Shown: one piece after another, positions 5,276 to 35,700 of the stretch
How the letters are laid out: each line of letters starts with the position of its first letter
Numbering within the stretch: the first letter of the stretch is position 1
NCBI GenBank assembly: GCA_028277105.1
Contig: JANQHO010000017.1
Coordinates: 1-64,000, forward strand
DNA length: 64,000 bases
Direction: 5' to 3'
Origin: Owenweeksia sp.
GTDB taxonomy: Bacteria; Bacteroidota; Bacteroidia; Flavobacteriales; Schleiferiaceae
Translations under genes and position numbers: made by a program
The notes under the pieces: generated by a model
Seen by the model: only the letters and a program-made list of their open reading frames with translations
What the model was told of the DNA's origin: nothing
Database searches by the model: none

Positions 5276-5279
5276 TAAG

Positions 5280-6191: not shown

Positions 6192-8125
6192 TGAGGAATT
6201 TCATTGTACATATTACAGCGTTTGTCTTGATGTTGACTACTACCGTGACTTCGGCTCAGGGAGATATTCAAAAGGCCAATCGATACTTCAATAATTTCAA
6301 CTATCCCAAAGCAGTAGAGTATTATCACAGTGCCTTAGAGTCTTATCCGAAAAAGAAAAAACACATTACACAGAGGCTGGCCACCTCTTATCGCCTGATG
6401 CTTGACTTTAAAGAAGCAGCGAAATGGTATGGCAAATTGGTACAGCTCAAAAAAGTGAAACCAGTAAATTATTTTTTCTACGCTAAAATGCTGGAAAGTA
6501 ACGGAGAGTACGAAGCTGCCAAAGTTTGGTTTGAGAAATTCATCGAAGAACTACCTTCCGATAGCCGGGCCAGAAAGCACGAAAAATATTCTTTGGAAGA
6601 AATAACAAAACTGCTCGAGAAAAAAGACAATTACCAGATATATCCTATTAGTATTAACAGTGCTTACGATGATTTTAGCCCGGCTGTTTATGGTAACAAA
6701 GTGGTATTTGTAACTAACAGGGACAATAACCCAATGGTAAAAAGGGATTACGTTTGGGATAATCAACCCTTTCTGGATATATATGTATGTGACCAAACCG
6801 GAGATGGTGACCTGGCCGATCCTAATCCGGTAGACGATCTTAACAGCCCACATCACGAAGGTCCCATGACCTTTACCAGTGATCTAAAGCGTATATATTT
6901 TACCCGTAATTATACTACTTCTAACGGGAAACTGGTTAAGGGTATGAACAATACTACTAACCTGAAAATACTCACTGCCCAGGCCAGTGTTTCAGAAGAT
7001 GGTGATGAACATTGGATAAATATTGAATCTTTGCCTTTTAACTCCAAAGATTATGTTTGCCAACATCCGGCATTAACTCCTGATGATAAAAAATTGATTT
7101 TTGCTTCTGACAAGCCCGGAGGTTACGGGGGGATGGATTTATACGTGGTAGAACGTAACCTCTTGGGCTGGTCTAATCCCAAGAATCTCGGCCCGGAGAT
7201 CAATACCAGTGGAGATGAGGCTTTTCCCTATGTTTCACAATCGGGAGACCTGTACTTTGCCAGTAACGGTCACCTTGGCCTGGGAGGGTTGGATATTTTT
7301 AAAGCTAACCTTGTGAAAAAAAGTTATGCCAACGTTACTAATCTCGGTTATCCGGTCAACGACAGTAAAGATGATTTTGGTTTGGTAATCAACGAAGCCA
7401 ACAAGGTGGGGTATTTTTCATCTAATCGCGATGGAGGCAAAGGAAGGGATGATATTTACCGCTTTATAATTCTGGACAAGAAGAAAGAAGAAAAGAAAAA
7501 AGCCCTGGAAATACACGTTTATGACCAGGTAAGTGGAGAAGGATTAACTGACGCAGTGGTTAATATTTTTACCCAGGAGGGTAAGCTTATAGAGGCTATT
7601 CAAATGAACGATACAGGCTTTTATTTTGCCGGGCGTAACCAGTATGAAGGAGAGCTGAGGTTTATTGCCTCTTACCCCAACTACAGTACTTACCGTGAAG
7701 TGGTAGATATTGCTACTTTAACCGGAGACCGCCCCAGGATCGATTTGCCGCTTAATCAAGATTTGGGAAAAGTACTCAATATCAATCCCATCTATTTTAA
7801 TTACGACAAAGCCAATATCCGCCCGGATGCTGCGGTAGAGCTCAATAAAATTGTTAAGATCATGATGGAAAACCCCACTATGGTAATAGAGGTAGCCAGC
7901 CATACCGACAGCAGAGGAAACAATGCCTACAATTACAATCTGGCCCAACGCAGAGCCCGCAGTAGCCGAGAGTACATCATCGATCGCGGCATTTCTCCCG
8001 AAAGGATCTATGGCCAGGGTTATGGTGAACAGCAGCTAACTAATGAATGTGAAGACGGGGTAAAATGTTCCGAATCCAAGCACCAGCTCAACCGCAGAAC
8101 CGAGTTTCGCATCATTAAATTCTGA
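6191..8125 (+). CDS. OmpA-family protein (TPR plus TolB-like beta-propeller region plus C-terminal OmpA peptidoglycan-binding domain)
   Basis: The C-terminal NPIYFNYDKANIRPDA...LAQRRA...TEFRII is an OmpA_C motif. Its ATG overlaps the PorP stop (TAATG). This is the canonical cargo-PorP-OmpA triad. Confidence 0.8.
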   Translation: MRNFIVHITAFVLMLTTTVTSAQGDIQKANRYFNNFNYPKAVEYYHSALESYPKKKKHITQRLATSYRLMLDFKEAAKWYGKLVQLKKVKPVNYFFYAKMLESNGEYEAAKVWFEKFIEELPSDSRARKHEKYSLEEITKLLEKKDNYQIYPISINSAYDDFSPAVYGNKVVFVTNRDNNPMVKRDYVWDNQPFLDIYVCDQTGDGDLADPNPVDDLNSPHHEGPMTFTSDLKRIYFTRNYTTSNGKLVKGMNNTTNLKILTAQASVSEDGDEHWINIESLPFNSKDYVCQHPALTPDDKKLIFASDKPGGYGGMDLYVVERNLLGWSNPKNLGPEINTSGDEAFPYVSQSGDLYFASNGHLGLGGLDIFKANLVKKSYANVTNLGYPVNDSKDDFGLVINEANKVGYFSSNRDGGKGRDDIYRFIILDKKKEEKKKALEIHVYDQVSGEGLTDAVVNIFTQEGKLIEAIQMNDTGFYFAGRNQYEGELRFIASYPNYSTYREVVDIATLTGDRPRIDLPLNQDLGKVLNINPIYFNYDKANIRPDAAVELNKIVKIMMENPTMVIEVASHTDSRGNNAYNYNLAQRRARSSREYIIDRGISPERIYGQGYGEQQLTNECEDGVKCSESKHQLNRRTEFRIIKF

Positions 8126-11111: not shown

Positions 11112-11199
11112 AAGTCTAAGTTTTAGTTGAAGTTCAAAAATCAAAAAAATATCTGAAATAAATGAGTTTGTTGGGATTTAAGTGATTTTAAAAACAAAT

Positions 11200-12230
11200 A
11201 GGTATTCGTAAAGATAAAGTTTGTAGATTTCGGTCAAATATTTATTGATGGAATTAGCTCAATTTTTTAAGACTTAAAGTGATGAAGACTCTTATATAGA
11301 GTTGTTTAAAGAATTTCGCGATAGTCAGGGGGTTACTTGCAAGCGTTGTGGCAGACAACAGCATATGTGGATTCATACTGTGCGAAAATATGAATGTATG
11401 TCCTGCGACTATCAAACCACTCTTCGCAGCGGCACTCTGTTTCAAGCCTCTAAAATACCTTATCATTATTGGATTTATGCTATTGTTTTAATGACTTACA
11501 CCAAGAAGAGCATTTCGGCTTTAGAGATGCAACGTCAATTAGGTCATAAACGTTATGAACCCATTTGGGCTATGATGCATAAAATCCGTAAGGCTATGGG
11601 TAATCGAGATTCACGGTATCAGTTGGAGGAATTGATAGAATTAGATGATGGCTTTGTAAAAACCTTTAAGGATAAAGATGGTGATGATTCAAATGGTAAT
11701 AAGCTAGGTAGAGGAACTCAGGAAAACTCCAATATACTGGTTATGTGTAGGGTGGATAGCGGAAAATAGGATGGTAATAAGAAGAAGGATACGGCTTTTA
11801 GATATGTGAAAATGCAACTAACTCACAATCAAAAAGGGGAAGAGTTTGAAAGAATCGTTGGATAATATGTTGACCCTTCATCTTGTCTAATCTCTGATGG
11901 TTTTAGATCTTTTAATCAACTAGACCTTAAAATGAAAAGTCACCTTCAACTTACAGTAAGCCCTAAACTCAGTAGTAAGGTTATACCTTGGGTGCATACC
12001 ACTATTTCCAACCTCAAAAGGCAATTATTAGTAGTGCATTCGGGGATAAAAGAATCTTATATATAGAATTACCTCGATGAGTTCTGCTATAAAACCAATA
12101 GAAGGTATTTTGGATTTAAACTATTCGATAGGGTCATGGTAGCCGCGGTTACTTTTTCTCCCTTAATCAATGACACTTTATGAAAACCGATACCCATTTA
12201 GATTAAATCTTACACTCTATTGGTGCCCTT
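11200..12230 (+). mobile_element. Degraded IS1595-family insertion sequence (boundaries approximate; IRs not confidently identified)
   Basis: Contains a transposase pseudogene with the IS1595 zinc-ribbon and ISXO2-like DDE domains. Locally AT-rich. Confidence 0.55.
11302..12183 (+). pseudogene. IS1595-family transposase, N-terminally truncated (TTG start) and broken by frameshifts or stops after aa 155
   Basis: ...CKRCG...YECMSCDYQTTLRSGTLFQASKIPYHYWIYAIVLMTYTKKSISALEMQRQLG...MMHKIRKAMG is the Zn_Tnp_IS1595 signature. ...IELDDGFV starts the DDE domain. Downstream, in other frames, ...VKMQLTHNQKGEEFERIV... and ...HLQLTVSPKLSSKVIPWVHTTISNLKRQLLVVHSGIKESY.NYLDEFCYKTNRRYFGFKLFDRV are the IS1595 C-terminal motifs. 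Confidence 0.75.
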
Positions 12231-12399
12231 TAGAAGTATTTAAGGCTGGACAGATGCATAATGAACAGGCTTCATTACTGCTTTAGCGGGAACTGTTGCT
12301 CTTACAGATGCGGAGGAGGAAAGGGAATTTGAAAAAGTCATCGTCTGTAAGTTTATCCACCCTTTTGAGGGAAAAAAGCACGATTACAGCTATGGAGTT

Positions 12400-12594
12400 T
12401 TGCTTGATGTAAAGGCAGCAGCAGGACATTATTCCAGTGGATGGTTACTATATTATGATTGTTGTGGTGATTATTCGGGATTCTCTGGCTCAGAACATAA
12501 AAGGGCTGAAAATCTTATTAAAAAGTATGTTGCTGATGGACTAGTCGAACTTCGGGAACTTAAAGTAGGTAAAAGATATTCCGAAAATATGTAG
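12400..12594 (+). CDS. Hypothetical protein (TTG start; the frame is open back to 12265). Possibly the N-terminal half of a frameshifted gene continuing in 12573-13100.
   Basis: ORF only, no recognisable motif. Its stop at 12592-12594 lies inside the upstream open extension (from 12573) of the next ORF, in a different frame. Confidence 0.25.
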   Translation: MLDVKAAAGHYSSGWLLYYDCCGDYSGFSGSEHKRAENLIKKYVADGLVELRELKVGKRYSENM

Positions 12595-12698
12595 CAAAAC
12601 ATCTTAATACATCTAGAGAATTAACTCAAGAGAAAATTCAGGAGATTGAAGAACAATTAGAAGAAAAATCTACAACACAGAGATTAAAAGCAGATGAT

Positions 12699-13100
12699 GT
12701 GCTTGGAAAAGCAATTATCCTTGAACAATTGACGTATTATGCTTTTAGTAAAAATAACAAAGCTAGCTCAGTTGAGTGGAGTATTAACAAGTCGAATGGG
12801 GAAATTGATATTTTGGTTAAAATTGTTGATGCAATAAAGATTATCGAATGTAAGGTAAATCCAAATAATAGTGACCTCCCAAAAGAATATGAAAAACTAC
12901 TGGTTAATCTAGAAAGGTACTCTGAAAAAGATAAGAATGGTGAATTTTGGTTTTGGATAAAACCTTCTCCTCAAAATACAAAATGGCTAGAGGATAATGG
13001 AATTCGATACGAGTACGTTAACCCAACAGAAAGGTTACCTATTATTCTTAATGGTATTAATCCTAACAATATGAAATTTGTCATGAACTACCAATATTAG
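12699..13100 (+). CDS. Hypothetical small protein with a possible PD-(D/E)xK nuclease-like motif (GEIDILV...IIECK). GTG start; frame open from 12573.
   Basis: hhD(x13)ExK spacing in ...NGEIDILVKIVDAIKIIECKVN... AT-rich islet context next to the IS remnant. Confidence 0.3.
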   Translation: MLGKAIILEQLTYYAFSKNNKASSVEWSINKSNGEIDILVKIVDAIKIIECKVNPNNSDLPKEYEKLLVNLERYSEKDKNGEFWFWIKPSPQNTKWLEDNGIRYEYVNPTERLPIILNGINPNNMKFVMNYQY

Positions 13101-13250
13101 CATTTTGTAAAATGCGAACTCCTCTTCTAAGTTTTCAATACATCAAAATTTGTAAGTCTCTCAATTTCAATTAACAAATTGACAAAATGGTTCGATACTG
13201 TTCCTCTTACCTCCACCAAGCTGCACAAGCAGCTACATTGCTACTGGCAG

Positions 13251-13280
13251 CCCCGCCTCTCTGGCGGGGTTGTTTTGTTT
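13251..13280 (+). terminator. Rho-independent terminator (ccccgcc-tctct-ggcgggg followed by ttgttttgttt)
   Basis: 7-bp GC stem followed by a T-rich tail, downstream of the small-ORF islet. Confidence 0.5.
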
Positions 13281-13433
13281 GCGCCCCTCGCAAGTCATTG
13301 TGTTTCAGGATTAAATCAAAGGGTTATTAATATCATTTCTCTGCTCGAAGAAGGGACATTGTCTTTATAGAGTAATAGTAGGAACCCATTTTCTGTACAG
13401 GCCATAATTGTTTTACCTTAGCCGCAGATATCC

Positions 13434-13508
13434 GGGGAGTTAGCTCAGTTGGTTCAGAGCACCGTCTTGACAGGGCGGGGGTCGCTGGTTCGAATCCAGT
13501 ACTTCCCA
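13434..13508 (+). tRNA. tRNA-Val (anticodon GAC). CCA is encoded at 13509-13511.
   Basis: Acceptor GGGGAGT/ACTTCCC (one G-U pair), D-arm GCTC..GAGC, anticodon stem CCGTC/GGCGG with loop TTGACAG, T-arm GCTGG TTCGAAT CCAGT. Confidence 0.85.
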
Positions 13509-13565
13509 CCAGGCTGTATTTACAGCACCACATCTATGGGCAGGGTTGTTTTGTTTGTAGTTTTT

Positions 13566-16500
13566 TTAGTCGTCAAGCCCCTTTTCCAACACTTCTTTAA
13601 TACCGGCCAGGTTTTCGCTGAAGATCATCATTTGATTAAGGATCTGTCCCATTTCATTTTTGGCACCCAAAGCTTTGAGTTTGTTATTTTTCCGGAATAT
13701 CTGTTTAATGCTCTCCCAGCGCTCTAACTCTTCCTTACTCAAAGTGTCAGTCAGCTCCTTGTACTTTAAGAGGTTGGCCTCAGCGGCCGAAGTAAGGGTT
13801 TGGGATTCACTTTCGTAGTGAGCGAGGAGCAGGGTTTGCAATTCCTCGTCATTCATCACTGGCACTACTTTGGCTACCAGTTTGTTCATATCCCGGTAAG
13901 ACCCCTGCAGCTTAAAAGCAGGTTCGGTGCGGTAGCTGTCTTCCATAGCAGCCGAATCGATGTAGGTGGCATTCACCTTCAATACGGTATCCCTGATCGC
14001 CATCACCTTTTTCAACACCGACAAATAATCCTGTATCTCCTGGCTGGTGTGGTTTCCCTTAAACAGAACTCCCTCTTCGTTGCCAGTTTCGGCTATCTGG
14101 ATAAAACTGTATACGTCCTCAAAATACTTACTGCTGAGCTGGTTTAGTACAGAGTTAGAGGTAAGGGCATTTTCCATCAGGCTAAGTTTAAAGAGGGTAG
14201 CGGTATTGCCAATGATGTCACCTAGGTTGTAGATGTCGGCCCGGTTGGCCAGCATATCGGGGATCTGAAATTTTTCACCGCTTTCGGTATAGGGGTTTCC
14301 GGCCATAACAACACAGAATTTATTCCTGCGCAGATCATAAGTTTTAGCCTGGCCATTGTACACGCCTTCTATTCTACGGGTGCCATCGGCCAGGGAGATG
14401 AATTTTTGCAGGAACTCTGGGTTGCAATGCTGGATATCGTCCAGGTACAGCATTACATTGTTGCCCATTTCAAAGGCCAGGTTGAGTTTTTTCAACTCTT
14501 CGCGGGCTGCGGCATTGTTAGCCGACATGGGATCTATCGAAGTTACATCGTATCCTATGGCTGGGCCGTTAACCTTTACAAAAACCAGGCTCAGGCGGTT
14601 GGCGATGTATTCCATCAGGGTGGTTTTACCGTAGCCGGGCGGGGAAACTAGCAAGAGCATTCCCATGCGATCGGTACGCTTTTTATCGCCCAAGGCCCCG
14701 ATCTGTTTAGCGAGGTTATCGCCAAAAAAAGGCAGGTACACCTGATCGATCAGTTTATTCCGTACAAAAGAAGAGAGCACACGGGGCTGGTAATCTTCCA
14801 GTTTGAGTTCCAGTTTAAGTTCTTCTATCACCTGGTGTTTGGCCTTTTGGTATTCTTTGTAGGCGGGTACTTCCTGCTCGTAATAACTTTGCAGTTGATG
14901 TATGAACTCGTGGTAATCAAAGACAAATTTTCCTTCTTTTACAGTAGGGTGTTCTCCTTTAATTCCTCTGATGATCTCGTAGGGTGAAATATGGTGGAGC
15001 CTGGAAACGGACTCATCTTTAAAGAGTTCCAGGCAAACCACTTCATCTGCATAGGCCAGTAAATTCGGTTTTGTATTTTTTATGAAAGAGGTGGTCCATT
15101 GCCGTATCAACTGTATCCTTGAACTGTACTTTTCTATATCCTGATAACCCGACCTGAATTTCTGGGCCGCCTGTTTTTTTTCCAGTTCATGCACAAATTC
15201 ATCGTAACATTCCCGGGCTAAAATGCTTATCTCAAATTCGTTATTTTGTTTGAGCTCGTTAAACAGGTATTGAGCAATAGAGTGAGCAGGCTCAGGGGCG
15301 AAGAGCTGGCTGATTCTCGCAAAAGCGGCAATTTTTTCCGCCAGCACTTCGAGGGTGTAATCGTATTCGGTAGATTGGGGGAAGATCTCCAATACGGCCC
15401 CTGAGGCTTTGATAGCTTGGTTGAGGTCGATTCTTTCCGCTTCCGGCAAAGAATACCAGAAATACTGGGCCCATGCCCTGAGACCGGGGCGGTAACGCAA
15501 TAAGCCCAATTCGTGGTGTTTGGTAACCAGGGTCTTTAATATTTTGAGAGCGTCCAGGTCGTGTACACCTTTAATATAACCCGCGGAATAGCTTTCGCTG
15601 ATCTCTGCTTTTACCATGGCCGCCAACTCATCTTCTGATGTATTGTATAGTTCCGGAGAACTGTTTTGGGCAAATATCTTATAAGCCAGGTAGGAGGCGC
15701 GGTAGATCTGAGAGTTTTCCGAAACCAGTTCCTGGTTCCAGAAGCGTTGGGATTGATTCAAGATTTCATTCTCAATGGAATGGTATAGGTTGGTTCCCGT
15801 AAGGTGGTACTGTAATTGGTCGTCCTTGTATACGATAGTGAGATCTATGGGTTGTTTGTTAACCGCAAACTTGTGGTTTCCCAATTTGATGATATTATCA
15901 CCATCCTCAAATAGCTCAATAGTGTCTTTCAGTTTGCGCAAAGTATCTTCCCGTACCACTTTCAGTTTGGTCTCCAGCATTTCGGCTTTGCCAACATCAT
16001 CCAGGGATTTGAGTTGCTCTACGATATCTCTGAGCTTATTGATCATCAGGTCGGAGGCAAAATAGCCATTGATAGCTTCCGGGCTTTTAAAGGAAAGGGC
16101 CTTTTTTTCGACCCCTTTGAGAATACGTTCCGAGGCATTTTGGAGAGCTAAGGCCTTTTTATTGCGGGCCTCGACCAGGAAATTCTTTTTCATTTCAAAG
16201 CTGCCATACACTTCTTCACGCTTTTCAACGATCTGGGTGATGAACTCTTCGAAATTGGCAAAACGGCCCTCCAAATCTTCCAATTGAAGGGATATTTTAT
16301 TGAGATATTCATCACATTTTTCAGGGGTGTCCGCTAGGTCGAGGTAGTTGGTTACGCTTTGGTTTACCAGTTTTAACTGAGCGGTAAATTCAGCTTTGGC
16401 CTCTTTGCTGCCCAGCGTTTTGATCTTGTTTTTTATGCTGGCCTTGAGCTGATTGAGGGTAGCGAAGATGAGGGAAATATTGTCGATGATCTCGGTGGTG

Positions 16501-18467
16501 TGCGAAGTGTCTTCAATGTTGAGGTTGGACACAATATCGATGAGCATTTCCAGGTCAACGCCTATTTGGGCGACCTCTTCTTCCAATTTTTTGATCTCTA
16601 CAACTTTTTCAAGGCCTACTATAGCCCCTTGTTTTTCCTCTATGCGCAAGTGATAGGGAGCCAGGGCTTTTTTATCCAGCAAAAAGGTAGCGCAGCGACT
16701 GGAGATCTTTTCGGTTTGTTCAGAAACAGAGTCCTCCAGTTCAGATATGTAACCCACATCGATGTAGCGGATGTCCTTTAAGCTGATAGCTTCGCCCCGC
16801 AACGAGCGCAGTTGGGAGAGGGCATAGACAAAATCATCGATATTCCGGAAGGAAGTGGCTTTTATCTTACCCAATAAGACATCTGCTTTTTCCTGGAGGT
16901 TGTCGATGGCATTACGGGCAACCTTCCTCAGGGCTACCACCTTTTCAAATTCGTCTATGGCAGCATCTGCAGCCGCTTTGATCTCTTTTACCGGTTCGGC
17001 CAGGACAAAGGTTTCCTTTTGTGATATCCAATAGTAACTGTCTACAATGTCTTTGGCCAGTTTGGAAATATCGGCATACAGGTCGGCATAGCTATCTTCC
17101 TTGTTTAAGAGGGTAATAAGAGCATGGCATTCGGCCGTAGCCTTTACAATGTCTTTATTGCCAATTTTATAGAGCAGCGAATCACTATGCTGGGAAGGGA
17201 TGTAATTCCCTTTCATAAAGGGTGTTTGCCAGATTTGCACTAAATGGTGTTTAGTCTGCTCATTTTCATTGCGGAAGTAACACAACTCTCCATTTTGTAG
17301 GCGGGTAAAGCCATTGCAAATAATGGGAGTCATAATTTCCTGATCGATTACGTTATAATGGATCAGGAGATAGGTGCCGCGGTGTGCCCCATAAAAAACA
17401 TAAAGAAAATCTTCGCCATTGGGCGAGGATATTTTTTGCTGGAACTTAATATCCCTGAGATCATTATCTATAATCTTATATTCTCCCGTTTGCAGATAGT
17501 AACCATTCGGGAAAATAATCCCTTGATCGTCAGGTAGCATGACAACAGTATCTTTTATGCTGTCAATCTTTTTAACTTCCTGTGCCTTGTGATTGTAAAC
17601 AAAGTAGCGGGCTTTCTCATGAAAAGGTTTGATCTCAAGGATAATAAGATTGCCCAAATCCGCAAAACGATACTGACCATCATCCAAAGTCTGGTCTCTG
17701 TGCTCTACCTCTTCGATGTAAATCCCCTGGCCATCATCTGTATTGTCTTCAATCTTAATAGTAAGGTCGCCACCAATAGTTTCTACAAAAACTTTATCTA
17801 AAATAGAAATATGGGGGTGTGGTCCATAGCGGTGCATATCACGATTAACTTCCTGCCAGTTAAACTCATGTTGTATAGGGAAGCGGTACTCATGCTCACT
17901 CCTATTGTCTACGTAATGAAGTTTTTCATCTTTAATCAGCCATTTAAAAGTTTTAATGTCATTGTGGATCTCACTGAGTTGAAATACCATGTGGAGGTAA
18001 TTTCCCACTAAGGCAAATTTGGAAAAGATGGTATGCCTGTAATACTTATAAAGGTTGGAGAAATCGGTCAGAAAGGTATCATCCTGTATGAGGTCTAAGC
18101 CCACCTCCTGAAAGTGCTCATCCTTGTAGCGGTAAATACTGAATACATCAGATAAAGTAACTTCTGTACGAAGGCCAAAGTGAACGTTATAGCCAAAAAT
18201 GGAAAGCTCACCAATAGTTACTATATCACGGGCAATACAATTATTATCGGTATTGATACGGTCATTGGCAATCAATTTGGTTTCAATAGCGCCAAAAACT
18301 TTTTTACGCTCCCCGTTTAGTTGGTCCAGGCGGTTGAGCAGCGATTCTTTGTGGGATTGTAGTCGATTTTTGATAATCTCATACGTCCCACCACTCAACT
18401 GGTGTTGCTCTTTATTTTCTTTTTCCTGCATAGAATAATTTAGAAGATGTTGAAAAGGAAACCCCAT
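13566..18467 (-). CDS. Giant (1633 aa) cytoplasmic protein. N-terminal approx 450-aa mixed domain, long alpha-helical/coiled-coil middle, one C-terminal MoxR/dynein-like (AAA_5-type) AAA+ ATPase module, and a 230-aa helical tail.
   Basis: Walker A LLLVSPPGYGKTTLMEY (encoded approx 14619-14660). Walker B VMLYLDDIQH. Sensor/Arg region VVMAGNPYTESGEKFQIPDMLANRADIYNL resembles the MoxR ATQNP..LPEA..DRF block. No second P-loop and no TM helices. Last gene of a tight operon. Confidence 0.75.
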   Translation of the reverse strand: MGFPFQHLLNYSMQEKENKEQHQLSGGTYEIIKNRLQSHKESLLNRLDQLNGERKKVFGAIETKLIANDRINTDNNCIARDIVTIGELSIFGYNVHFGLRTEVTLSDVFSIYRYKDEHFQEVGLDLIQDDTFLTDFSNLYKYYRHTIFSKFALVGNYLHMVFQLSEIHNDIKTFKWLIKDEKLHYVDNRSEHEYRFPIQHEFNWQEVNRDMHRYGPHPHISILDKVFVETIGGDLTIKIEDNTDDGQGIYIEEVEHRDQTLDDGQYRFADLGNLIILEIKPFHEKARYFVYNHKAQEVKKIDSIKDTVVMLPDDQGIIFPNGYYLQTGEYKIIDNDLRDIKFQQKISSPNGEDFLYVFYGAHRGTYLLIHYNVIDQEIMTPIICNGFTRLQNGELCYFRNENEQTKHHLVQIWQTPFMKGNYIPSQHSDSLLYKIGNKDIVKATAECHALITLLNKEDSYADLYADISKLAKDIVDSYYWISQKETFVLAEPVKEIKAAADAAIDEFEKVVALRKVARNAIDNLQEKADVLLGKIKATSFRNIDDFVYALSQLRSLRGEAISLKDIRYIDVGYISELEDSVSEQTEKISSRCATFLLDKKALAPYHLRIEEKQGAIVGLEKVVEIKKLEEEVAQIGVDLEMLIDIVSNLNIEDTSHTTEIIDNISLIFATLNQLKASIKNKIKTLGSKEAKAEFTAQLKLVNQSVTNYLDLADTPEKCDEYLNKISLQLEDLEGRFANFEEFITQIVEKREEVYGSFEMKKNFLVEARNKKALALQNASERILKGVEKKALSFKSPEAINGYFASDLMINKLRDIVEQLKSLDDVGKAEMLETKLKVVREDTLRKLKDTIELFEDGDNIIKLGNHKFAVNKQPIDLTIVYKDDQLQYHLTGTNLYHSIENEILNQSQRFWNQELVSENSQIYRASYLAYKIFAQNSSPELYNTSEDELAAMVKAEISESYSAGYIKGVHDLDALKILKTLVTKHHELGLLRYRPGLRAWAQYFWYSLPEAERIDLNQAIKASGAVLEIFPQSTEYDYTLEVLAEKIAAFARISQLFAPEPAHSIAQYLFNELKQNNEFEISILARECYDEFVHELEKKQAAQKFRSGYQDIEKYSSRIQLIRQWTTSFIKNTKPNLLAYADEVVCLELFKDESVSRLHHISPYEIIRGIKGEHPTVKEGKFVFDYHEFIHQLQSYYEQEVPAYKEYQKAKHQVIEELKLELKLEDYQPRVLSSFVRNKLIDQVYLPFFGDNLAKQIGALGDKKRTDRMGMLLLVSPPGYGKTTLMEYIANRLSLVFVKVNGPAIGYDVTSIDPMSANNAAAREELKKLNLAFEMGNNVMLYLDDIQHCNPEFLQKFISLADGTRRIEGVYNGQAKTYDLRRNKFCVVMAGNPYTESGEKFQIPDMLANRADIYNLGDIIGNTATLFKLSLMENALTSNSVLNQLSSKYFEDVYSFIQIAETGNEEGVLFKGNHTSQEIQDYLSVLKKVMAIRDTVLKVNATYIDSAAMEDSYRTEPAFKLQGSYRDMNKLVAKVVPVMNDEELQTLLLAHYESESQTLTSAAEANLLKYKELTDTLSKEELERWESIKQIFRKNNKLKALGAKNEMGQILNQMMIFSENLAGIKEVLEKGLDD

Positions 18468-18492
18468 ATTTCAGGGGCTTGCCATCAATGGA

Positions 18493-20550
18493 TCATCCTA
18501 TTTTTTTGTCTGATAAACCTAAGGCCTTGGCTAGGTTGGATAAGTTCAGGAAGTTATTTCTTTCGTCAGCATTGGAAGCTTTGTCCTGTAATTCCAGTAG
18601 AATGTTGGCAATCGTCAGGTTTCTGATATTTTCTGAGGAGATACCATATTTCTCAGCAAACTCTTTGATCTTATCTAAAAGGTTGCCTTTTACATCATCA
18701 TTTCCTAAAATAGCGTCTTTTACATCCTGTATGCTGTTGCTATGGTCAACCAGGCGATCTATGCCCTTGGCTTTAGTGATCTGACCGATGATATTTTCAA
18801 AGAACATGGTTTCACCCCCTACAATATCAATGTTAGCGGATTTCAAGGCTTCACCTATTACCAGAGCCTGGGCGTTGGCAATATCTTTTTGAATGGTGAT
18901 ACCGGCCAGTTCAATTTCTTTCTCTTTATCCAGGCGTAGCTTGAATTCTTCGTGGTCTTTACCTACCCCATCGAGTTTCTTCATAGCCTCAGCTTTTTCT
19001 TCTATACCTGCTGCATCAGCCAGGGATTTTTCCTTGATCACTTCAGCTTCAGCTAATCCTTCTTTCTTAATGGCATCAGCTTTAGCTTCTATACCAGAAG
19101 CTTCAGCTTTGGCTTTCTTTTCTATTATTAAAGCCTCAACTACCCCTTTTCGCTCTTCGGCATCTGCTTTAGCATGCATAACCTGTGCTTCAGATAAACC
19201 AATCGTTGCTTCTTCCTTGGCTTGAGCTTCAGCCAAAGTCTTACGGGCTTCAGCTTCTTTTTCACTCGCTTCTTTATGGGCTTGAGCTTCAATATTAATT
19301 TCTTCTGCTTTTTGCTTGGCAGCTTCTTTCTCAGCTTCTGCTGCTTTTATACGCTTAATCAAGGATTCTTGAGCGTCAGCTTCAGCTTTGGTTATGGTCA
19401 CTTGTTTATCACGGTCGGCTGTCTTAAAAGCCTCAATGTCCTTCATGTTTTCCTGTTCTTCCACCACGCCTTTTTCCAGCATTACACGATCCCTGATAAC
19501 ATCTTGAATGTTCTTCTTTTCAACTTCTACTACTTTGTCTTTCTCAATAGTGGCTAGCGACACAACTCTTTCTCTTTCGGTAGCCTCCAGCAAACGGTCT
19601 TTTTCAACGCGTTCTGTTTCCACCGCATCCGTTCTTTGCTTGTTCTTTGCTGCAATGATTACCTGCCTTTCTTTATTCTCTTCTGCAACTTTTACTTTTT
19701 CCTCTGTTTGGATACGGGCAGATTCTGATTTCAGACGTTCTTCTTCATTTACCTTTTGGATTTCTGCTTCTTCGCGGGCTTTGATGTTGGCAATTTCTCT
19801 TTTTTGCTGTTCTTCTTTTTCAGCTAATTGCTTGTCCAGCTCTAATATAGCTTCGCGGGCTTCAACATCTTGTTTTCTGATGACCTTTTCCTCATCACGT
19901 TTAATCAGATTGGCCTTTATATTTTGAGCAGTAGTGAGTTCCGTGATCTTTTTGATACCCTCTGCATCAAGAATATTATCCGGCTTTAAGAAAGAGATGG
20001 GGGTTTGCTCCAAAAAGTCAATGGCACAATCGTCAAGGACATAACCGTTGAGGTCTGTTCCTATGATATTGATGATCTCATCCCTGAATTCCCTACGGGC
20101 TTCGTATAAAGCACTGAATTCGAATTTTTTACCTACGGTTTTTAAGGCTTCAGAAAATTTAGCTTCAAAAAGGTCTTCTAAAGTTTTAAAATCTGAAGCC
20201 CTGGAAACACCTATAGTCTGGGCTACATTGATAATATCGTCTTTGGATTTATTGACCCTTACAAAAAAGGCTACTTTAATGTCAGCTCTCATATTGTCTC
20301 TGCAAATGAGGCCATCATCACCGAGCCTTTCAATCTGAATTTTTTTTACGGAGATGTCCATAATCTCCAGTCTGTGAACAACGGGTACAACGTATAACCC
20401 TTTGTCGAAGGCAACTGCGGCACCTCCAAAACCTGTTCTTACCAATGCTTTGCCCTGTGGGATTTTTCTATAAAAAGCGGCAATGATAATCACCAGGGCA
20501 AGGAGGGTGATTACGATAACGCCAATAACGGTTAGTGCAATAGTGCTCAT
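18493..20550 (-). CDS. Flotillin-family SPFH/band-7 protein (YqiK/FloT-like) with a long EA-rich coiled-coil C-terminal region
   Basis: N-terminal TM, then SPFH core ...VRTGFGGAAVAFDKGLYVVPVVHRLEIMDISVKKIQIERLGDDGLICRDNMRADIKVAFFVRV..., then AEAEAK-type repeats typical of flotillins. Confidence 0.85.
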   Translation of the reverse strand: MSTIALTVIGVIVITLLALVIIIAAFYRKIPQGKALVRTGFGGAAVAFDKGLYVVPVVHRLEIMDISVKKIQIERLGDDGLICRDNMRADIKVAFFVRVNKSKDDIINVAQTIGVSRASDFKTLEDLFEAKFSEALKTVGKKFEFSALYEARREFRDEIINIIGTDLNGYVLDDCAIDFLEQTPISFLKPDNILDAEGIKKITELTTAQNIKANLIKRDEEKVIRKQDVEAREAILELDKQLAEKEEQQKREIANIKAREEAEIQKVNEEERLKSESARIQTEEKVKVAEENKERQVIIAAKNKQRTDAVETERVEKDRLLEATERERVVSLATIEKDKVVEVEKKNIQDVIRDRVMLEKGVVEEQENMKDIEAFKTADRDKQVTITKAEADAQESLIKRIKAAEAEKEAAKQKAEEINIEAQAHKEASEKEAEARKTLAEAQAKEEATIGLSEAQVMHAKADAEERKGVVEALIIEKKAKAEASGIEAKADAIKKEGLAEAEVIKEKSLADAAGIEEKAEAMKKLDGVGKDHEEFKLRLDKEKEIELAGITIQKDIANAQALVIGEALKSANIDIVGGETMFFENIIGQITKAKGIDRLVDHSNSIQDVKDAILGNDDVKGNLLDKIKEFAEKYGISSENIRNLTIANILLELQDKASNADERNNFLNLSNLAKALGLSDKKIG

Positions 20551-20556
20551 GATTGT

Positions 20557-21264
20557 TTATGAATAGTTAGTATAGGGTTGAACGTAGTAGTATTTTTTAT
20601 CTGAGGATTGCTTGATCACCAGTATTTGTTCCCCTGAATTTATGAGGGAACCATCCAGTGATTTGGCGTAAAACTTTATGGGGCTATCCAGTACTTTAAC
20701 TTCAACGGTGCCAATTCGTTCCCCTTCCAGTTGAGAGAGGCTTATACCTGCTCTGCCAAGTAGGTCAATGGATTGATCGCCCTTGCTGTTGAACTTTTTA
20801 AACAGCCGTTTAAAAGGGCTGGTCACCATCTTATTGATATACAGGGCGGGAATCATGGCACCAAAGAAAAAGAGGAAGCCAATATTGTTGTCATAAGTTC
20901 CGGTAAGGTAGGTACCTGTTACCGTAATGGTCCACCAGATCAACACCCAAAAGGTGAAAGTGAACATGAGTGGCAGGCCTACAAAATTGAAGTAGATGAG
21001 AAAGATCTGAAACCAATTGAGCTTACCTTTTTTTCTTACAGCCTGGTCTTTAGCTTCAGCATTAGTGATGTCTTCAAAATCTACTGACTCTGAAGAGCCT
21101 AAGTCAGCTTCAGCACCCACATCAATGTCTACATCAATATCCGTATCTATATTGGTATCCAAACCTGTAATGATGGCAAATATCCAGTAGATTACAACCA
21201 GCAGTAGTAGTATGCTAAGCCCAATATTGACTTCGGAGAAAAAAACTTCCTTAATAAAGTCCAA
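20557..21264 (-). CDS. YqiJ/NfeD-like membrane protein (TM helices plus C-terminal OB-fold), the usual flotillin partner
   Basis: Several TM segments, an acidic D/I/D/V-rich loop, and a C-terminal ...GTVEVKVLDSPIKFYAKSLDGSLINSGEQILVIKQ... beta-rich NfeD-like domain. 6-bp gap to the flotillin gene. Confidence 0.6.
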   Translation of the reverse strand: MDFIKEVFFSEVNIGLSILLLLVVIYWIFAIITGLDTNIDTDIDVDIDVGAEADLGSSESVDFEDITNAEAKDQAVRKKGKLNWFQIFLIYFNFVGLPLMFTFTFWVLIWWTITVTGTYLTGTYDNNIGFLFFFGAMIPALYINKMVTSPFKRLFKKFNSKGDQSIDLLGRAGISLSQLEGERIGTVEVKVLDSPIKFYAKSLDGSLINSGEQILVIKQSSDKKYYYVQPYTNYS

Positions 21265-21266
21265 TA

Positions 21267-21998
21267 TTACTCCTCTTTAGATGGGTTGGTACCGTCTTCA
21301 CTTAAACCCAACTGCGCTTTTAGTTTTTCCAGGTCATCTTCGGCATTAGCTTCTGAAGTGTCCACAATCTTATTCAACTCATCGTCAATAGATTTGGACT
21401 CATTGGCCATATTGCCGTAGGCATCAGCTAAAGCTTCATCCTGAGCCACTTTGTCTTTCATGCGCTCAAGCATAGAAACGGTGCTGCTGCTATCTATTTC
21501 TGCCATTTGTTTGTTCAGGTTTTTGGTGGCTTTGCTCACCTTAACGCGGGCAGTTAGGGTTTTGAGTTCATTTTCCCATTTACTGATATTGGACTTAATG
21601 GTCTGGATAGTAGTGTTTAACTGATTAGCAGACTCCTCAAATTTTTGAGCTTCTTTTTGAAGTCTCTCCACCTGCTTAAGGCTTTCTTCCTTTTTGACTA
21701 AAGCTTCCTTGGCTAAGCGATCTGCTTCGGCAATATCCAGTTCTCCTCTACTTGCTTTTTTAAGGATAAGAACGGCTTTGTTTTTATAATCTTCAGCTTT
21801 AGATTGGGATTCTTCCATATCGTTTTTGGCACGTATGGCAAGAGCCTTAACCTGGGCTAAGGCTTCCATGCTTTTGGCCAGATCTTCTTTCATGTCCCTT
21901 ATACCTTGCTGGGTTAGTTTAATAGGGTCTTCCATTTTATCCACAGCAGCGTGAGCTTCAGCTTGTCCTATTTTAAAAAGTCTTTTGAAAATATTCAT
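21267..21998 (-). CDS. PspA/IM30/Vipp1-family (ESCRT-III-like) protein
   Basis: MNIFKRLFKIGQAEAHAAVDKMEDPIKLTQQGIRDMKEDLAKSMEALAQVKA... is the canonical PspA_IM30 N-terminus. All-helical coiled coil, 243 aa. Confidence 0.8.
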   Translation of the reverse strand: MNIFKRLFKIGQAEAHAAVDKMEDPIKLTQQGIRDMKEDLAKSMEALAQVKALAIRAKNDMEESQSKAEDYKNKAVLILKKASRGELDIAEADRLAKEALVKKEESLKQVERLQKEAQKFEESANQLNTTIQTIKSNISKWENELKTLTARVKVSKATKNLNKQMAEIDSSSTVSMLERMKDKVAQDEALADAYGNMANESKSIDDELNKIVDTSEANAEDDLEKLKAQLGLSEDGTNPSKEE

Positions 21999-22002
21999 AG
22001 TA

Positions 22003-22398
22003 TTAATTTTTAGAAAATTTTATGATTTGATCCGAGTATTCGCTTAGTAATAAACTCAAGGAGTTTAAGGAAGCTTCCAGTTCGTTAAGGTCGAGGTTCT
22101 CCAATTGTAAAGTGTCTCTGAAGATCACCTTATCACCAGTTTCATTCAGTACAAAAGCTCCATGAATAATGTCCCGGTTTTTTTGAAGCAGGCTTTTGAA
22201 AATCTCCAGTGAAGGAAAGTTTACCGTAAAGATGAATTGTTCGATAATTAGGATAGGGTAGGCTACACCTATGATCAAATTCTTAATTCCGGCCGACTCT
22301 TTTTGAATAACCATAACCCCATTCAATTCATCTTCCAGCGTAATCAAAAATTCGAGTTCCTGAATGTATTCTTTAGTCTTTTGATACTGGTCTTTCAT
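22003..22398 (-). CDS. Small cytoplasmic protein, first gene of the PspA operon (possibly YbjN/YjfI(DUF2170)-like PspA partner)
   Basis: 131 aa, no TM. 4-bp gap to pspA-like gene. The YbjN/DUF2170 call rests on weak sequence resemblance plus gene context; it is not a homology hit. Confidence 0.35.
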   Translation of the reverse strand: MKDQYQKTKEYIQELEFLITLEDELNGVMVIQKESAGIKNLIIGVAYPILIIEQFIFTVNFPSLEIFKSLLQKNRDIIHGAFVLNETGDKVIFRDTLQLENLDLNELEASLNSLSLLLSEYSDQIIKFSKN

Positions 22399-22441
22399 TG
22401 GCGTGTTTGTTTAAGTTAGAGATAATTAAGGGTCAACTTTA

Positions 22442-22461
22442 AGATGTTTTGTAAAACATCT
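22442..22461. promoter_or_regulatory. Perfect palindrome agatgtttt-gt-aaaacatct in the divergent promoter region between the PspA operon and the XRE regulator gene. Candidate operator.
   Basis: 9-bp inverted arms with a 2-bp spacer, seen directly. Located 44 bp upstream of the first operon gene and 188 bp upstream of the XRE gene. Confidence 0.4.
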
Positions 22462-22648
22462 ATGATGATTGCTAAAGTTATTAGAATAATATTTGCCGGC
22501 CACCATCTCAACATTAATATTCTTTTTCTTTTTGAGAAAAGAAATCGGATAGACACCTACCTAAGCTAAAATTATTAACTACTTTAGCTAATAAGAATGG
22601 GGTAAAGATAAGATTTTTTAACCAAATTGCAAATAAAATTAGCATTCT

Positions 22649-23413
22649 ATGACTTTTTTTGGGAAGAATATCAAAAAGATCAGAGGGGTAAAGAGATTGA
22701 GCCAGCAGGCTTTTGCTGATCTATTCGACTTAAAAAGAGGCACTTTGGGAGCCTACGAGGAGGGGAGAAGTGAACCTAAACTGGAAACTATTATCCGGAT
22801 TGCTAATTATTTTAGTGTTTCGATCGATAGCTTGCTAACGCATGAGCTTACGGTAAACCAGTTACTGCAATTTAAAGGTGATATTGCAGCTGCTATTGAT
22901 GAAAACCAGCTTAAAGAGTTTACCCAAATACCTTGCCTTACGGTTGACAAAATAAGTGAGTACTGCAAAAATTTTACGGATAAGGGGCTTATTGAAACCC
23001 TGCCCAAACTTCAGCTACCGGTGATGAGCAAAAGGAAATTGCGGGGCTATATCATCCATAATTTAGAGATGGCCCAAAACGAAAGTGGGCTCTATCCTAA
23101 AGATGTGGTTATAGGGGAAGCCATACCTAAAATAAGGATCAGTGATCTGGAGGAGGGAACACTGAGTATGTTGTTATTGGAAGAAGATTTTTTGATACGC
23201 AGAATATTTATTAACGACAATAAAATAGTCCTCAAAGCTGACCATGAGAGTGTACCTGACAAAGAGATCAACCCAAAAGAATTGAAAGAATTATGGGTAG
23301 TAAAGTACATTTTTAACCATAGGCTTCCTTACCGTACAAATTCGCTGGAAGAAAGGGTCAGAGTATTAGAACAGGAGTTTACGAAGTTAAAATCGTCACT
23401 TGGTGATAAGTAG
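22649..23413 (+). CDS. XRE-family (Cro/C1-type HTH) transcriptional regulator with a C-terminal domain of unknown function
   Basis: ...IKKIRGVKRLSQQAFADLFDLKRGTLGAYEEGRSEPKLETIIRIANYFSVSIDSLL... is the HTH_3 signature. Divergent from the PspA-flotillin operon. Confidence 0.75.
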   Translation: MTFFGKNIKKIRGVKRLSQQAFADLFDLKRGTLGAYEEGRSEPKLETIIRIANYFSVSIDSLLTHELTVNQLLQFKGDIAAAIDENQLKEFTQIPCLTVDKISEYCKNFTDKGLIETLPKLQLPVMSKRKLRGYIIHNLEMAQNESGLYPKDVVIGEAIPKIRISDLEEGTLSMLLLEEDFLIRRIFINDNKIVLKADHESVPDKEINPKELKELWVVKYIFNHRLPYRTNSLEERVRVLEQEFTKLKSSLGDK

Positions 23414-23430
23414 TAATTTATTAGCAGATT

Positions 23431-24126
23431 TTATAACCCCAGGTATTTCTGAAGCTCAGCTTTATAAGCCTCACTAACGGGAATGTAATGTTTACCGATC
23501 ACGATGCGATTTCGTTCTACGGTGGTAAGGTGCTGCAGACTAACGATGTAGGAGCGGTGTACTTTCATAAAGGCGTTTCGAGGCATTTTTTCCTCTAGTG
23601 ACTTTAAGCTCATCAAAGTCATAATAGCGCGGCCATCACTGAGGTAGATCTTTACGTAATCCTTTTGGTTTTCTATGAAAAGTATGTCCTTCCAGACGAT
23701 CTTGATCAATTTGTAGTCTGCTTTTACAAAAAAGTAATCTTCATTTTTCCGGTATGGCGCGTCCTTTTTCAAGGAAAAGTATTCTTTGGCCTTGGTGGCT
23801 GAGTTTAGAAAATCTTCAAAGCTGAAAGGTTTCAGTAAATAGTCCAGGGCATGAACCTTATAGCTTTCCAGAGCATACTGCTCGTAAGCGGTAGTAAATA
23901 TTACCCGGGTTTGTTCCGGCAGCAAACGAGAAAGATTCATTCCGCTTAAGTCGGGCATATTTATGTCCATAAAAACCAGGTCTACTGGTTTTTCATGCAG
24001 GGATTCCAGGGCCTTTAATGAGCTGTAGTAAACTCCTTGTAGTTCCAGAAAGGAAACTTTTCCAATGTATTCCTTTACCAGTTCAATAGCCGGTGGCTCG
24101 TCATCTATGGCTATACATTTTATCAT
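23431..24126 (-). CDS. LytTR-family two-component response regulator
   Basis: REC domain MIKCIAIDDEPPAIE...D plus a C-terminal LytTR DNA-binding domain. Confidence 0.85.
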   Translation of the reverse strand: MIKCIAIDDEPPAIELVKEYIGKVSFLELQGVYYSSLKALESLHEKPVDLVFMDINMPDLSGMNLSRLLPEQTRVIFTTAYEQYALESYKVHALDYLLKPFSFEDFLNSATKAKEYFSLKKDAPYRKNEDYFFVKADYKLIKIVWKDILFIENQKDYVKIYLSDGRAIMTLMSLKSLEEKMPRNAFMKVHRSYIVSLQHLTTVERNRIVIGKHYIPVSEAYKAELQKYLGL

Positions 24127-25189
24127 CCCGGGGCAATATCAGGTTTACGGTAAATTTCGAATCTTTTTGTTGAATGTCAAGCCGGTAATTCTGTTTAGGA
24201 TATAACAGTTCCAACCTTTTGCGGATATTGGTCAAGCCTATACCCCCCGTTTCTCCGGTATTGCTTTTTTTGTGAATGCTGTTGCTGATATCAAAATAAA
24301 TGCCCGATTGATCGGAAGTCAGTGAAATACTCAGGCTGGAAGGCTGCTCGTAGCTCACTCCGTGTTTAAAGGCATTTTCTATAAAGGGTATAAAGATCAA
24401 GGGAGGTACTTCGAGGTGGTCTTCCAGTTGATCTACTTTAAGATCAACGGCTACATCTTCTGCCAGGCGCAGCTTCATCAGTTTGATGTAATCTTCCAAA
24501 AAAGCTACCTCTTTGCCGATGGGGATAGTTTGCTTATCGGTTTCGTACAGCATATACCGCATGAGCTTGGATAGCTGATGAATGGTTTGCCGGGCCTTAT
24601 CGGGATTGGAACCCACAAAAGAGTAAATGTTATTCAGGGTATTAAAGAAAAAATGCGGGTTGATCTGGTTTTTGAGAAAGGCCAGTTCGGCCGTGAGCTT
24701 CTCCTTTTCCATTTCTTCCTTGTCTTTATCCTGTTTCAGAGCCCGGCTCACTGCGGTAAAAATCAAGCCAAAGGCAAAGGTCAAAATAGTTGACATGACC
24801 ACAAACAGATGCTGAGGATCGGGTCTTTGGCCTTCTTTTAAGAAGCGGTTATCCAGCTCGGCAAGGGGTTGAGGCCTTTTCCATTTTTCTATGTGAAAAT
24901 ACTCATCGAATGAGATGTTAATGAGATAGATAAGGACAAAACAAGTCAGTACCGCCAGCAGGTACCACCATACCTTTTTCCTGAACAAGAGTTGAGGTAT
25001 CAGCAAAAGGGTATTGATGTAGTAAAAAATAACGATCAATGTGAGATGACCGGCTATGCGATAGTATATGTCGTTGGGAAGTACCGATAAATTGACCGGC
25101 CCTGCAAATAGCAAAAGGGAGAACAGCCCTGACCATACAATGAGGTGTAAAAGAACTTTCCAGAAAATATGATTAGGGTCAAATTTCAT
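24101..25189 (-). CDS. Membrane sensor histidine kinase, LytS/YehU type (His_kinase PF06580-like plus HATPase_c)
   Basis: Multi-TM N-terminus. ...LKNQINPHFFFNTLNNIYSF... signature. G-box GGIGLTNIRKRLEL. Confidence 0.8.
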   Translation of the reverse strand: MKFDPNHIFWKVLLHLIVWSGLFSLLLFAGPVNLSVLPNDIYYRIAGHLTLIVIFYYINTLLLIPQLLFRKKVWWYLLAVLTCFVLIYLINISFDEYFHIEKWKRPQPLAELDNRFLKEGQRPDPQHLFVVMSTILTFAFGLIFTAVSRALKQDKDKEEMEKEKLTAELAFLKNQINPHFFFNTLNNIYSFVGSNPDKARQTIHQLSKLMRYMLYETDKQTIPIGKEVAFLEDYIKLMKLRLAEDVAVDLKVDQLEDHLEVPPLIFIPFIENAFKHGVSYEQPSSLSISLTSDQSGIYFDISNSIHKKSNTGETGGIGLTNIRKRLELLYPKQNYRLDIQQKDSKFTVNLILPRDDKMYSHR

Positions 25190-35419: not shown

Positions 35420-35489
35420 GGAAGTTGTATTGCCGTATAAAAGTAGTTAATTGTCGGGTGTAATCAACCCTTATCTCGATCTGTGATAA

Positions 35490-35700
35490 GTATAAATGAA
35501 AACGGTCATGCTGGGCGTGGACCCGGATAACAATTATAAGATCGCGGGTCTTGGCCCGCGATGAGTCTCTTTACAGGCGGTCATGCCGGATCAGATCCGG
35601 TATCTTAAACTCCTAATAACAAAGTTGGGATCGCGGTTCTACCTGCCGGTAGATAAGCCTGCCTGCGGAAAGCAGGTCTACGGCTGCGATGGTTTTTTGT
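35490..35700 (-). other. GC-rich cluster of 4-5 consecutive small hairpins with internal repeats (ccgcgatc x3, catgaccg x2) between the HisKA_3 kinase gene and its LuxR-type regulator gene. Candidate structured RNA or REP-like element.
   Basis: Read directly: cctgc-tttcc-gcagg, ctacc-ggca-ggtag, ccggatc-t-gatccgg and atcgcggg-ccaagac-ccgcgat on the transcribed (minus) strand. GC content is far above the surroundings. Confidence 0.4.

Follow-up and report, generated by a model that had tools for sequence, protein, structure and literature searches.

What might a giant ATPase be doing at the end of an operon whose other genes encode a PspA homologue, a small chaperone-like protein and two membrane proteins? 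This question is raised by a locus of Owenweeksia sp. (Bacteroidota), located in the first 64,000 nucleotides of contig JANQHO010000017.1 (assembly GCA_028277105.1); this whole stretch is called the window below. The listing of open reading frames (ORFs) places five of them on the minus strand at 13566-22398, with a regulator gene diverging from them. The short answer is that the operon is not a new system but an orthologue of one already published on computational grounds. As for its role, we read it as a putative repressor-controlled module for membrane stress or remodelling, the Bacteroidota form of a conserved system, and we place in this reading a little more belief than doubt. The grounds for it are the conserved gene order and spacing, the triad of NfeD-like, flotillin and ATPase genes present in 68 of 71 loci, invariant ATPase motifs, the NfeD fold of one membrane protein, the alignment of the PspA homologue and a palindrome in the control region. 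The genes concerned, and the region that separates the operon from its regulator, are the following.

22649..23413, plus strand: divergent regulator gene, 254 residues
22399..22648, no strand: 250-bp divergent control region between regulator gene and operon
22003..22398, minus strand: gene 1, small chaperone-like protein of the CesT/Tir type, 131 residues
21267..21998, minus strand: gene 2, PspA/IM30 (ESCRT-III superfamily), 243 residues
20557..21264, minus strand: gene 3, NfeD/YqiJ/YuaF-like membrane protein, 235 residues, TTG start
18493..20550, minus strand: gene 4, YqiK-type flotillin, 685 residues
13566..18467, minus strand: gene 5, soluble giant AAA+ ATPase, 1633 residues counted from the first ATG

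An earlier note on this DNA had described a minus-strand operon of five genes with gaps of 2-25 bp, together with a divergent regulator of the XRE type, and both descriptions stand: the coordinates are exact, the gaps from gene 5 back to gene 1 are 25, 6, 2 and 4 bp, and the gene at 22649-23413 encodes an HTH_3 protein. One boundary deserves revision. Because the deposited protein for the large gene (P0121) has 1621 residues and the homologues of the giant ATPase begin near residue 13 in the alignment, the true start is probably Met13, at 18431, which would widen the flotillin-ATPase gap to 61 bp. A terminator scan found no strong minus-strand terminator-like site inside the operon. The arrangement is most likely that of a repressor and five genes read as a single transcript, and it is from this arrangement that we infer co-transcription.

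Is such an operon new? The earlier note regarded the combination as known only piecemeal, and on this point it was mistaken. The full layout, regulator included, is already present in the work of Ravi et al. (mSystems 2024; preprint 2020; PMC11237479), who give it, with a divergent regulator of the cHTH-plus-protease type, for the pspA of Dokdonia donghaensis DSW-1 (ANH61663.1). Their class comprises a CesT/Tir-PspA pair, a YqiJ/YuaF protein, a Band-7/flotillin protein and an ATPase made of beta-propeller, coiled-coil and AAA+ parts; the same authors noted abbreviated flotillin/YqiJ/ATPase operons in other lineages, and had already inferred a machine composed of a membrane scaffold and an ATPase (PMC11237479). 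The gene order is catalogued there computationally.

The window operon has the marks of this class, namely the five genes in order and a divergent regulator of the cHTH-plus-protease type. In genes, order and divergent regulator there is no structural difference between it and D. donghaensis, and the layout in Dokdonia sp. Hel_I_63 (locus L001) is identical. The flanks differ: in Dokdonia, a PadR-PspC/Toastrack module lies upstream, whereas the neighbours in the window are LytTR two-component genes and a tRNA. In Dokdonia sp. Hel_I_63, the PadR and PspC/LiaF/Toastrack genes (L001, 402-2536) lie about 3 kb upstream of the regulator gene and constitute a second Psp-type system, which is absent from the window. 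The window locus itself adds little beyond one more orthologue. What the re-analysis contributes is the recognition of the triad as the core, of the PspA-chaperone-repressor set as an extension typical of Bacteroidota, and of a candidate operator.

A likely proteobacterial counterpart, by analogy of layout, is the "biofilm-associated cluster" bacABCDEF (PA3732-PA3727) of Pseudomonas aeruginosa, found by reverse-transcription PCR to be one transcript, and so a further exception to the piecemeal picture (PMC10948618; PMC2587700). There, the PspA homologue bacB rises on osmotic shock; bacB and bacA mutants are defective in biofilm formation, rhamnolipid production and virulence; and the other five Bac proteins rise 6-13 fold when the chaperone-like BacA is lost (PMC10948618; PMC2587700). 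Its authors tie the cluster to the six-gene class of Ravi et al. (PMC10948618; PMC2587700). Like the window operon, bacABCDEF begins with a CesT-fold gene, continues with a PspA homologue and is followed by four more genes; unlike it, BacA belongs to DUF2170/YjfI, there is a sixth gene, bacF, the proposed promoter is of the sigma-54 type, and no divergent XRE gene is present. Another member, PA3729, appears in an eLife paper on Arc only as background in a pull-down list.

Parts of the operon are also known as smaller modules. The pairing of an SPFH2-type flotillin with an NfeD partner has been recognized since Hinderhofer et al. 2009 (PMC2636767), and both yqiJ-yqiK of Escherichia coli and yuaF-floT of Bacillus subtilis have, as in the window, an NfeD-like gene directly upstream of a YqiK-type flotillin gene; the yqiJK locus, however, has no ATPase, PspA, chaperone or XRE regulator. 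The yjfI-yjfJ genes of E. coli likewise form a pair, a small protein of the CesT superfamily first and a PspA paralogue second, but their products resemble those of the window weakly or not significantly (E = 0.006 for YjfJ and 0.66 for YjfI). The two kinds of module meet on pQBR103, a megaplasmid of P. fluorescens, where a yjfI-pspA dyad shares a strand with genes for a YqiJ-like protein, an SPFH protein and a DUF3686 ATPase; here, in contrast to the window, polyamine-related genes lie between dyad and triad. This locus merges the E. coli modules yjfIJKLMC and yqiJK with a DUF3686 ATPase. The same strand (L004, 84437-97641) also carries genes for a rhomboid protein, for DUF2491, DUF350 and DUF1190 proteins and for glutathionylspermidine synthase.

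Which of these proteins are the constant partners of the ATPase? A census was made with HMMER, using residues 1-1200 of the ATPase as query against 1.84 billion cluster representatives (clusters at 50% identity). It gave 1334 clusters at E <= 1e-3 and 406 at E <= 1e-30, most of them of 1600-1900 residues. With each species represented by one genome, a further scan brought up at least 594 loci, the best 80 of which were retrieved, and 13 "plasmid" records (megaplasmids, chromids and mislabelled chromosomes) added Pseudomonadota, Actinomycetota and Deinococcota. Altogether, 88 related loci were analysed by means of ORFs and hidden Markov models (HMMs).

Wherever enough upstream DNA was available, the order NfeD, flotillin, ATPase was found in 68 of 71 loci, whatever the phylum: Bacteroidota, Planctomycetota, Verrucomicrobiota, Desulfobacterota, Kiritimatiellota, Omnitrophota, Clostridia, Actinomycetota, Deinococcota or Pseudomonadota. 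This triad is a near-universal core of the related loci across at least eight phyla. The complete unit, with a divergent XRE gene followed on the other strand by CesT, PspA, NfeD, flotillin and ATPase genes, occurs in 35-36 of the 46 Bacteroidota loci, and the XRE/CesT/PspA part was found within 6 kb in none of the 25 loci from other phyla. Flotillin and NfeD, and not PspA, are thus the constant partners of the ATPase, a point that had been overlooked before. PspA, chaperone and repressor form a lineage-specific extension, typical of Bacteroidota. Across many genera of Flavobacteriaceae, the orthologues are 65-86% identical, and the regulator is always attached.

The identity of the two membrane proteins was a question in itself. 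Neither the 685-residue nor the 235-residue protein matches a Pfam or NCBIfam model, even with the limit relaxed to E < 10, and the 235-residue family has no Pfam match when every member is scanned, so that both labels needed independent tests. For gene 4 the answer is direct. Its product aligns with E. coli YqiK by BLASTP at E = 9e-46, with 30% identity over 445 residues that include the anchor and the SPFH domain (residues 2-442 of the window protein), and this upholds the flotillin call in spite of the silence of Pfam, including its Band_7 and Flotillin models. The protein consists of an N-terminal membrane anchor (a single hydrophobic segment, residues 1-32), an SPFH domain and a long coiled coil rich in Glu, Ala and Lys. 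Among the genera of Flavobacteriaceae its orthologues share about 80% identity and go by the name of flotillin or YqiK; some of them match Band_7 (Dokdonia, P0052). In the PDB, a sequence search with gene 4 gave only QmcA, at E = 0.21, and a profile search gave nothing.

For gene 3 the route is longer. A direct comparison with E. coli YqiJ is not significant (BLASTP E = 0.15, hhalign E = 0.037). An HMM seeded with E. coli YqiJ and iterated on the ORFs of the related loci converges, however, on the same 69 ORFs as the HMM seeded with the window protein, gene 3 included. A scan for hydrophobic segments gives three transmembrane (TM) segments: TM1 is followed by an acidic D-x-D loop and then by the other two helices, and the chain ends in an OB-like beta domain. 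An AlphaFold model based on 25 homologues (predicted local distance difference test, pLDDT, 72.8) shows the TM helices, with the acidic loop disordered and a beta domain at the C-terminus, and its four best Foldseek matches in the PDB are all NfeD domains: YuaF (2k14, 7.6e-5), YbbJ (8z5g, 7.9e-4), MTH693 (2k5h) and PH1510-C (3wwv). The entry 8z5g is the solved SPFH-NfeD complex of QmcA and YbbJ. Gene 3 also stands directly upstream of the SPFH gene, with a gap of 6 bp, as do its equivalents in 69 loci (median gap 26 bp). The YqiJ/NfeD label, equally lacking Pfam support, is borne out by the structural matches and by the YqiJ-seeded HMM.

A side feature of gene 3 is the conserved disordered loop between TM1 and TM2 (residues 37-80), an acidic D-x-D-x-D repeat. 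Lys and Arg residues flanking it suggest a cytoplasmic orientation. Cations or polyamines are possible ligands of the loop, and it is of note that polyamine genes accompany the operon in its proteobacterial versions.

The first two genes are easier to place. Gene 2 matches PspA_IM30 (PF04012) at E = 6e-45, with 153.9 bits against a gathering cut-off of 33.9, over positions 2-230, which confirms the PspA/IM30 assignment, and it aligns at full length with solved Vipp1/PspA chains (E = 2e-15 to 5e-12). Under the NCBIfam equivalog cut-offs it stays far below, with 65 bits against 243 for TIGR02977 (PspA) and 50 against 380 for LiaH, and its similarity to E. coli YjfJ is the weak one given above. 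By these scores, gene 2 belongs to a distinct PspA subfamily, equivalog neither of E. coli PspA nor of B. subtilis LiaH. Gene 1 matches PF22550 (CesT_Tir_1) over its whole length, positions 1-131 of 131, at E = 1e-54 (184 bits, cut-off 27), and in 35 loci it immediately precedes pspA, with a median gap of 11 bp. The earlier label "YbjN/YjfI-like" holds at the level of the superfamily and not directly: the BLASTP match to E. coli YjfI is not significant, and neither the YjfI (DUF2170) nor the YbjN model is among its Pfam matches. No sequence relatives of the CesT-like protein were found in the PDB.

The giant protein encoded by gene 5 is composed of three recognizable parts.

17031..18341, minus strand: DUF3686 (PF12458), residues 43-479, E = 4.8e-179
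16419..16670, minus strand: DUF7902 (PF25472), residues 600-683, E = 4.5e-24, within a long helical, coiled-coil middle region
14280..14657, minus strand: AAA+ core, residues 1271-1396, with Walker A SPPGYGKTT, Walker B YLDDIQH, sensor-1 Asn1391 and Arg1409

The large N-terminal DUF3686 domain had escaped the earlier note; published work presents it as beta-propeller repeats, and the protein is the "Betapropeller+Coiled-coil+AAA-ATPase" of Ravi et al. (PMC11237479). The proposal of a single C-terminal AAA+ module proved correct, AAA_5 being the best match (6.6e-8), followed by AAA (2.3e-6), with complete motifs. Its description as MoxR/dynein-like agrees with AAA_5 as the top Pfam model, while the structural subclass is weakly resolved and the core resembles many AAA+ proteins in structure. 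All of 85 full-length homologues preserve Walker A, Walker B, the sensor-1 Asn and the conserved arginines without change, and for this reason the protein is probably an active ATPase. Homologues have the same set of Pfam domains, and full-length ones with 34-69% identity are found in many phyla, the nearest in Aquimarina and Tenacibaculum (68-69%). No TM or hydrophobic segment was found in gene 5, a soluble protein; the membrane-anchored members of the system are the flotillin and the NfeD-like protein.

How is the system controlled? The regulator has an N-terminal helix-turn-helix (HTH) domain of the Cro/CI type (HTH_3, E = 7e-11); in 36 of 46 Bacteroidota loci its gene points away from the operon. 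Its C-terminal domain recalls Peptidase_S24, which is matched by 13 of 21 orthologues (best 4e-9) and by the window copy at 0.096; against E. coli LexA, hhalign gives E = 7.3e-5 with a probability of only 62%. In this alignment Ser119 of LexA corresponds to Ala142 and Lys156 to Arg184, and because the Ser/Lys dyad is replaced in this way, the S24-like domain of the window regulator looks degenerate and non-catalytic. A possible binding site lies next to the gene.

22627..22645, no strand: operator-like imperfect palindrome, TTGCAAATAAAATTAGCAT on the plus strand, 4 nt upstream of the regulator ATG

The form that characterizes the family is TTGCTAAT-N3-ATTTGCAA, from which the window copy departs by one mismatch. 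Of 34 orthologous intergenic regions, 17 contain the strict palindrome, usually next to the start codon of the regulator, and the regions concerned come from Flavobacteriaceae, Bacteroides, Chryseobacterium and Sphingobacterium. Of its half-site heptamers, TTGCTAA was found in 24 of these 34 regions and TTTGCAA in 23, against 2.1 and 1.5 in shuffled sequences. We infer from this that the palindrome is a candidate operator of the regulator. The same control region has a second, near-perfect palindrome, AGATGTTTT-GT-AAAACATCT, at 22441-22460, some 45 nt upstream of gene 1. About ten other intergenic regions, inspected by eye, did not show it; it might serve as another operator or as an element close to the promoter.

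How might these parts work together? In the reading that we prefer, the flotillin and its NfeD partner would form an SPFH scaffold, or cage, at the inner membrane, on its cytoplasmic side. Docked on this scaffold through its propeller and coiled-coil regions, the soluble giant ATPase would spend ATP on assembling, remodelling or recycling both the scaffold and whatever it contains. Bacteroidota would have added PspA, an ESCRT-III-type polymer that may seal or reshape damaged membrane, and the CesT-like chaperone would probably hold or regulate PspA, as BacA appears to do in Pseudomonas. The divergent regulator, with its HTH and pseudo-S24 domains, would probably repress both promoters through TTGCTAAT-N3-ATTTGCAA until a stress signal arrives. 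Contacts, substrate and inducing signal are all predicted here. A link between the scaffold and PspA has a parallel in B. subtilis, where an SPFH protein is reported to be needed for connecting PspA to the membrane. The idea of a self-contained membrane-remodelling machine, put forward by the earlier note, is reasonable and coincides with the published inference; its phage-related and acquired part found no support.

Several points weigh against this reading. Most triad loci have no PspA, and PspA may for that reason not be the substrate of the ATPase. Gene 5 contains no MIT-like domain with which to bind PspA, its Walker B reads DD and not DE, and its AAA+ subclass is the weakly resolved one mentioned above. 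PGAP and Pfam name the family "DNA repair ATPase". In Pseudomonas, bacE (PA3728), which may be a DUF3686 protein, is listed as an "ATPase" in one table, and searches of the literature on PA3728 yielded mutation lists and tables but no functional study. No experimental study was found of any Bacteroidota member, or of the ATPase anywhere. To these points we add that promoter scans of the sigma-70 type are uninformative for Bacteroidota.

To our knowledge, bacteria have no obvious Vps4, and we know of no account of how flotillins and PspA polymers are dismantled or recycled. An ATPase encoded directly downstream of the flotillin gene in nearly all of the loci analysed, and in many phyla, is the best candidate for such a role. 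A more specific and decidedly tentative idea, doubtful as it stands, is that the DUF3686 ATPase is a dynein/MoxR-like motor that assembles or strips SPFH cages and, in Bacteroidota, also PspA polymers, as an independent analogue of Vps4, with a pseudo-protease LexA-like repressor that would sense damage to the membrane and not to DNA. The likeness to the ESCRT-III/Vps4 systems of archaea (CdvB/CdvC) and eukaryotes is a functional analogy, in that a gene for an ESCRT-III-superfamily polymer stands beside one for an AAA+ ATPase; gene 5 itself does not have the combination of N-terminal MIT domain and classic-clade AAA module that marks the Vps4 type.

Could the ATPase instead act on other membrane proteins? 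The scaffold of SPFH protein and NfeD partner resembles QmcA-YbbJ (8z5g), and its combination with an AAA+ enzyme resembles HflK/C-FtsH. By this resemblance, the flotillin/NfeD cage would recruit the ATPase to unfold, extract or mature client membrane proteins, as in quality control; the ATPase would spare both the scaffold and PspA, and PspA would be a co-induced membrane patch. We consider this unlikely. Compared with HflK/C-FtsH and QmcA-YbbJ, the window system has no protease domain, and its ATPase is soluble and not membrane-anchored. Nor does the operon have the VWA partner typical of MoxR systems, no client can be identified, and neither FtsH nor MoxR has anything that corresponds to the huge propeller and coiled-coil region.

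Far less probable is a horizontally acquired island for defence or abortive infection, possibly phage-related, inserted at tRNA-Val, and it is best judged together with the genomic setting. The tRNA-Val(GAC) is indeed where it had been reported, at 13434-13511, on the strand opposite to the operon and 54 nt from the ATPase stop. Beyond it there is, also as reported, an AT-rich stretch (about 11000-13000, GC content 0.31-0.38), with a weak IS1595-like remnant. The flanks of the operon have no gene in common with any of the 88 related loci, and the 13 "plasmid" records that carry homologues include pQBR103 and a Hymenobacter plasmid; all of this would suit an island. The absence of flank synteny fits equally frequent rearrangement or movement of the module as a unit. 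Against an island, a tRNA lies beside the operon in none of 26 related Bacteroidota loci, so that this adjacency is peculiar to the present genome. The GC content of the operon (0.41-0.455) is within the range of the window (0.34-0.48), and no integrase was found beside it. The identity of the orthologues across Flavobacteriaceae genera, with the regulator always attached, also argues against such an island.

The search for phage relatives was equally negative. No relatives of the ATPase were found in 50,697 phage records (INPHARED, by tblastn) or in a scan of 2.9 million IMG/VR contigs, and PADLOC gave only trivial matches, of the P-loop to IetA (1.9e-4, 29 residues) and of the coiled coil to LmuB. 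Nothing supports a phage origin or a recent acquisition of the operon. The suggestion of an acquired accessory system is not supported, considering the six-gene unit in most Bacteroidota loci, the ordinary GC content and the isolated tRNA adjacency. The XRE gene, once taken as a sign of acquisition, is a conserved part of the unit.

Least probable of all, and barely credible, is a true DNA-repair ATPase under a LexA-like repressor in an SOS-type response, since the PGAP name, the Pfam description of DUF3686, the LexA/S24-like domain of the regulator and a weak RuvB P-loop similarity that speak for it are met by a RuvB likeness limited to the Walker A region, operon proteins with no nuclease or other recognizable DNA-metabolism domain, constant neighbours that are membrane proteins, a window regulator devoid of the LexA Ser/Lys dyad, and the absence of DUF3686 from the literature found. 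No evidence was found behind the name "DNA repair ATPase", which is likely a misnomer that PGAP and Pfam have spread over hundreds of genomes.

A few observations concern the surroundings of the operon. The stretch with the lowest GC content of the region, 11250-12200, holds a degenerate IS1595-like remnant. The IS1595 assignment of the earlier note is only weakly supported: the ORF at 11302-11769 matches Zn_ribbon_IS1595 at E = 1.7e-4, under the gathering score, its frame is broken downstream, and no intact DDE transposase was found at the remnant. The AT-rich stretch and the remnant, beyond the tRNA, are a feature separate from the operon. The tRNA-Val(GAC) itself is flanked by a 19-nt direct repeat, GGC(G/A)GGGTTGTTTTGTTTG, at 13263-13281 and 13539-13557, for which the chance expectation is none; a strong terminator-like hairpin on the plus strand (13246-13274) has the first copy as its tail.

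The rest of the window is an ordinary chromosome of the Flavobacteriaceae type, with type IX secretion cargo, PorP/SprF, a TonB-dependent receptor and LytTR two-component systems. Two adjacent ORFs, at 52389-57890 (1833 residues) and 57903-59708 (601 residues), have no Pfam match at E <= 0.001. The region 410-8125 encodes a type IX secretion cargo protein with Big_9/cadherin repeats and a CHU_C sorting domain, followed by PorP/SprF and an OmpA/TPR/PD40 protein. LytTR and kinase genes are also found near the operon in about nine related loci, at varying positions, and their proximity is probably a coincidence. In the window there are four pairs of LytTR response regulator and histidine kinase (23431-25189, 30890-34556, 34730-36475 and 47446-51178), and two of the four kinases carry Reg_prop/Y_Y_Y sensor domains.

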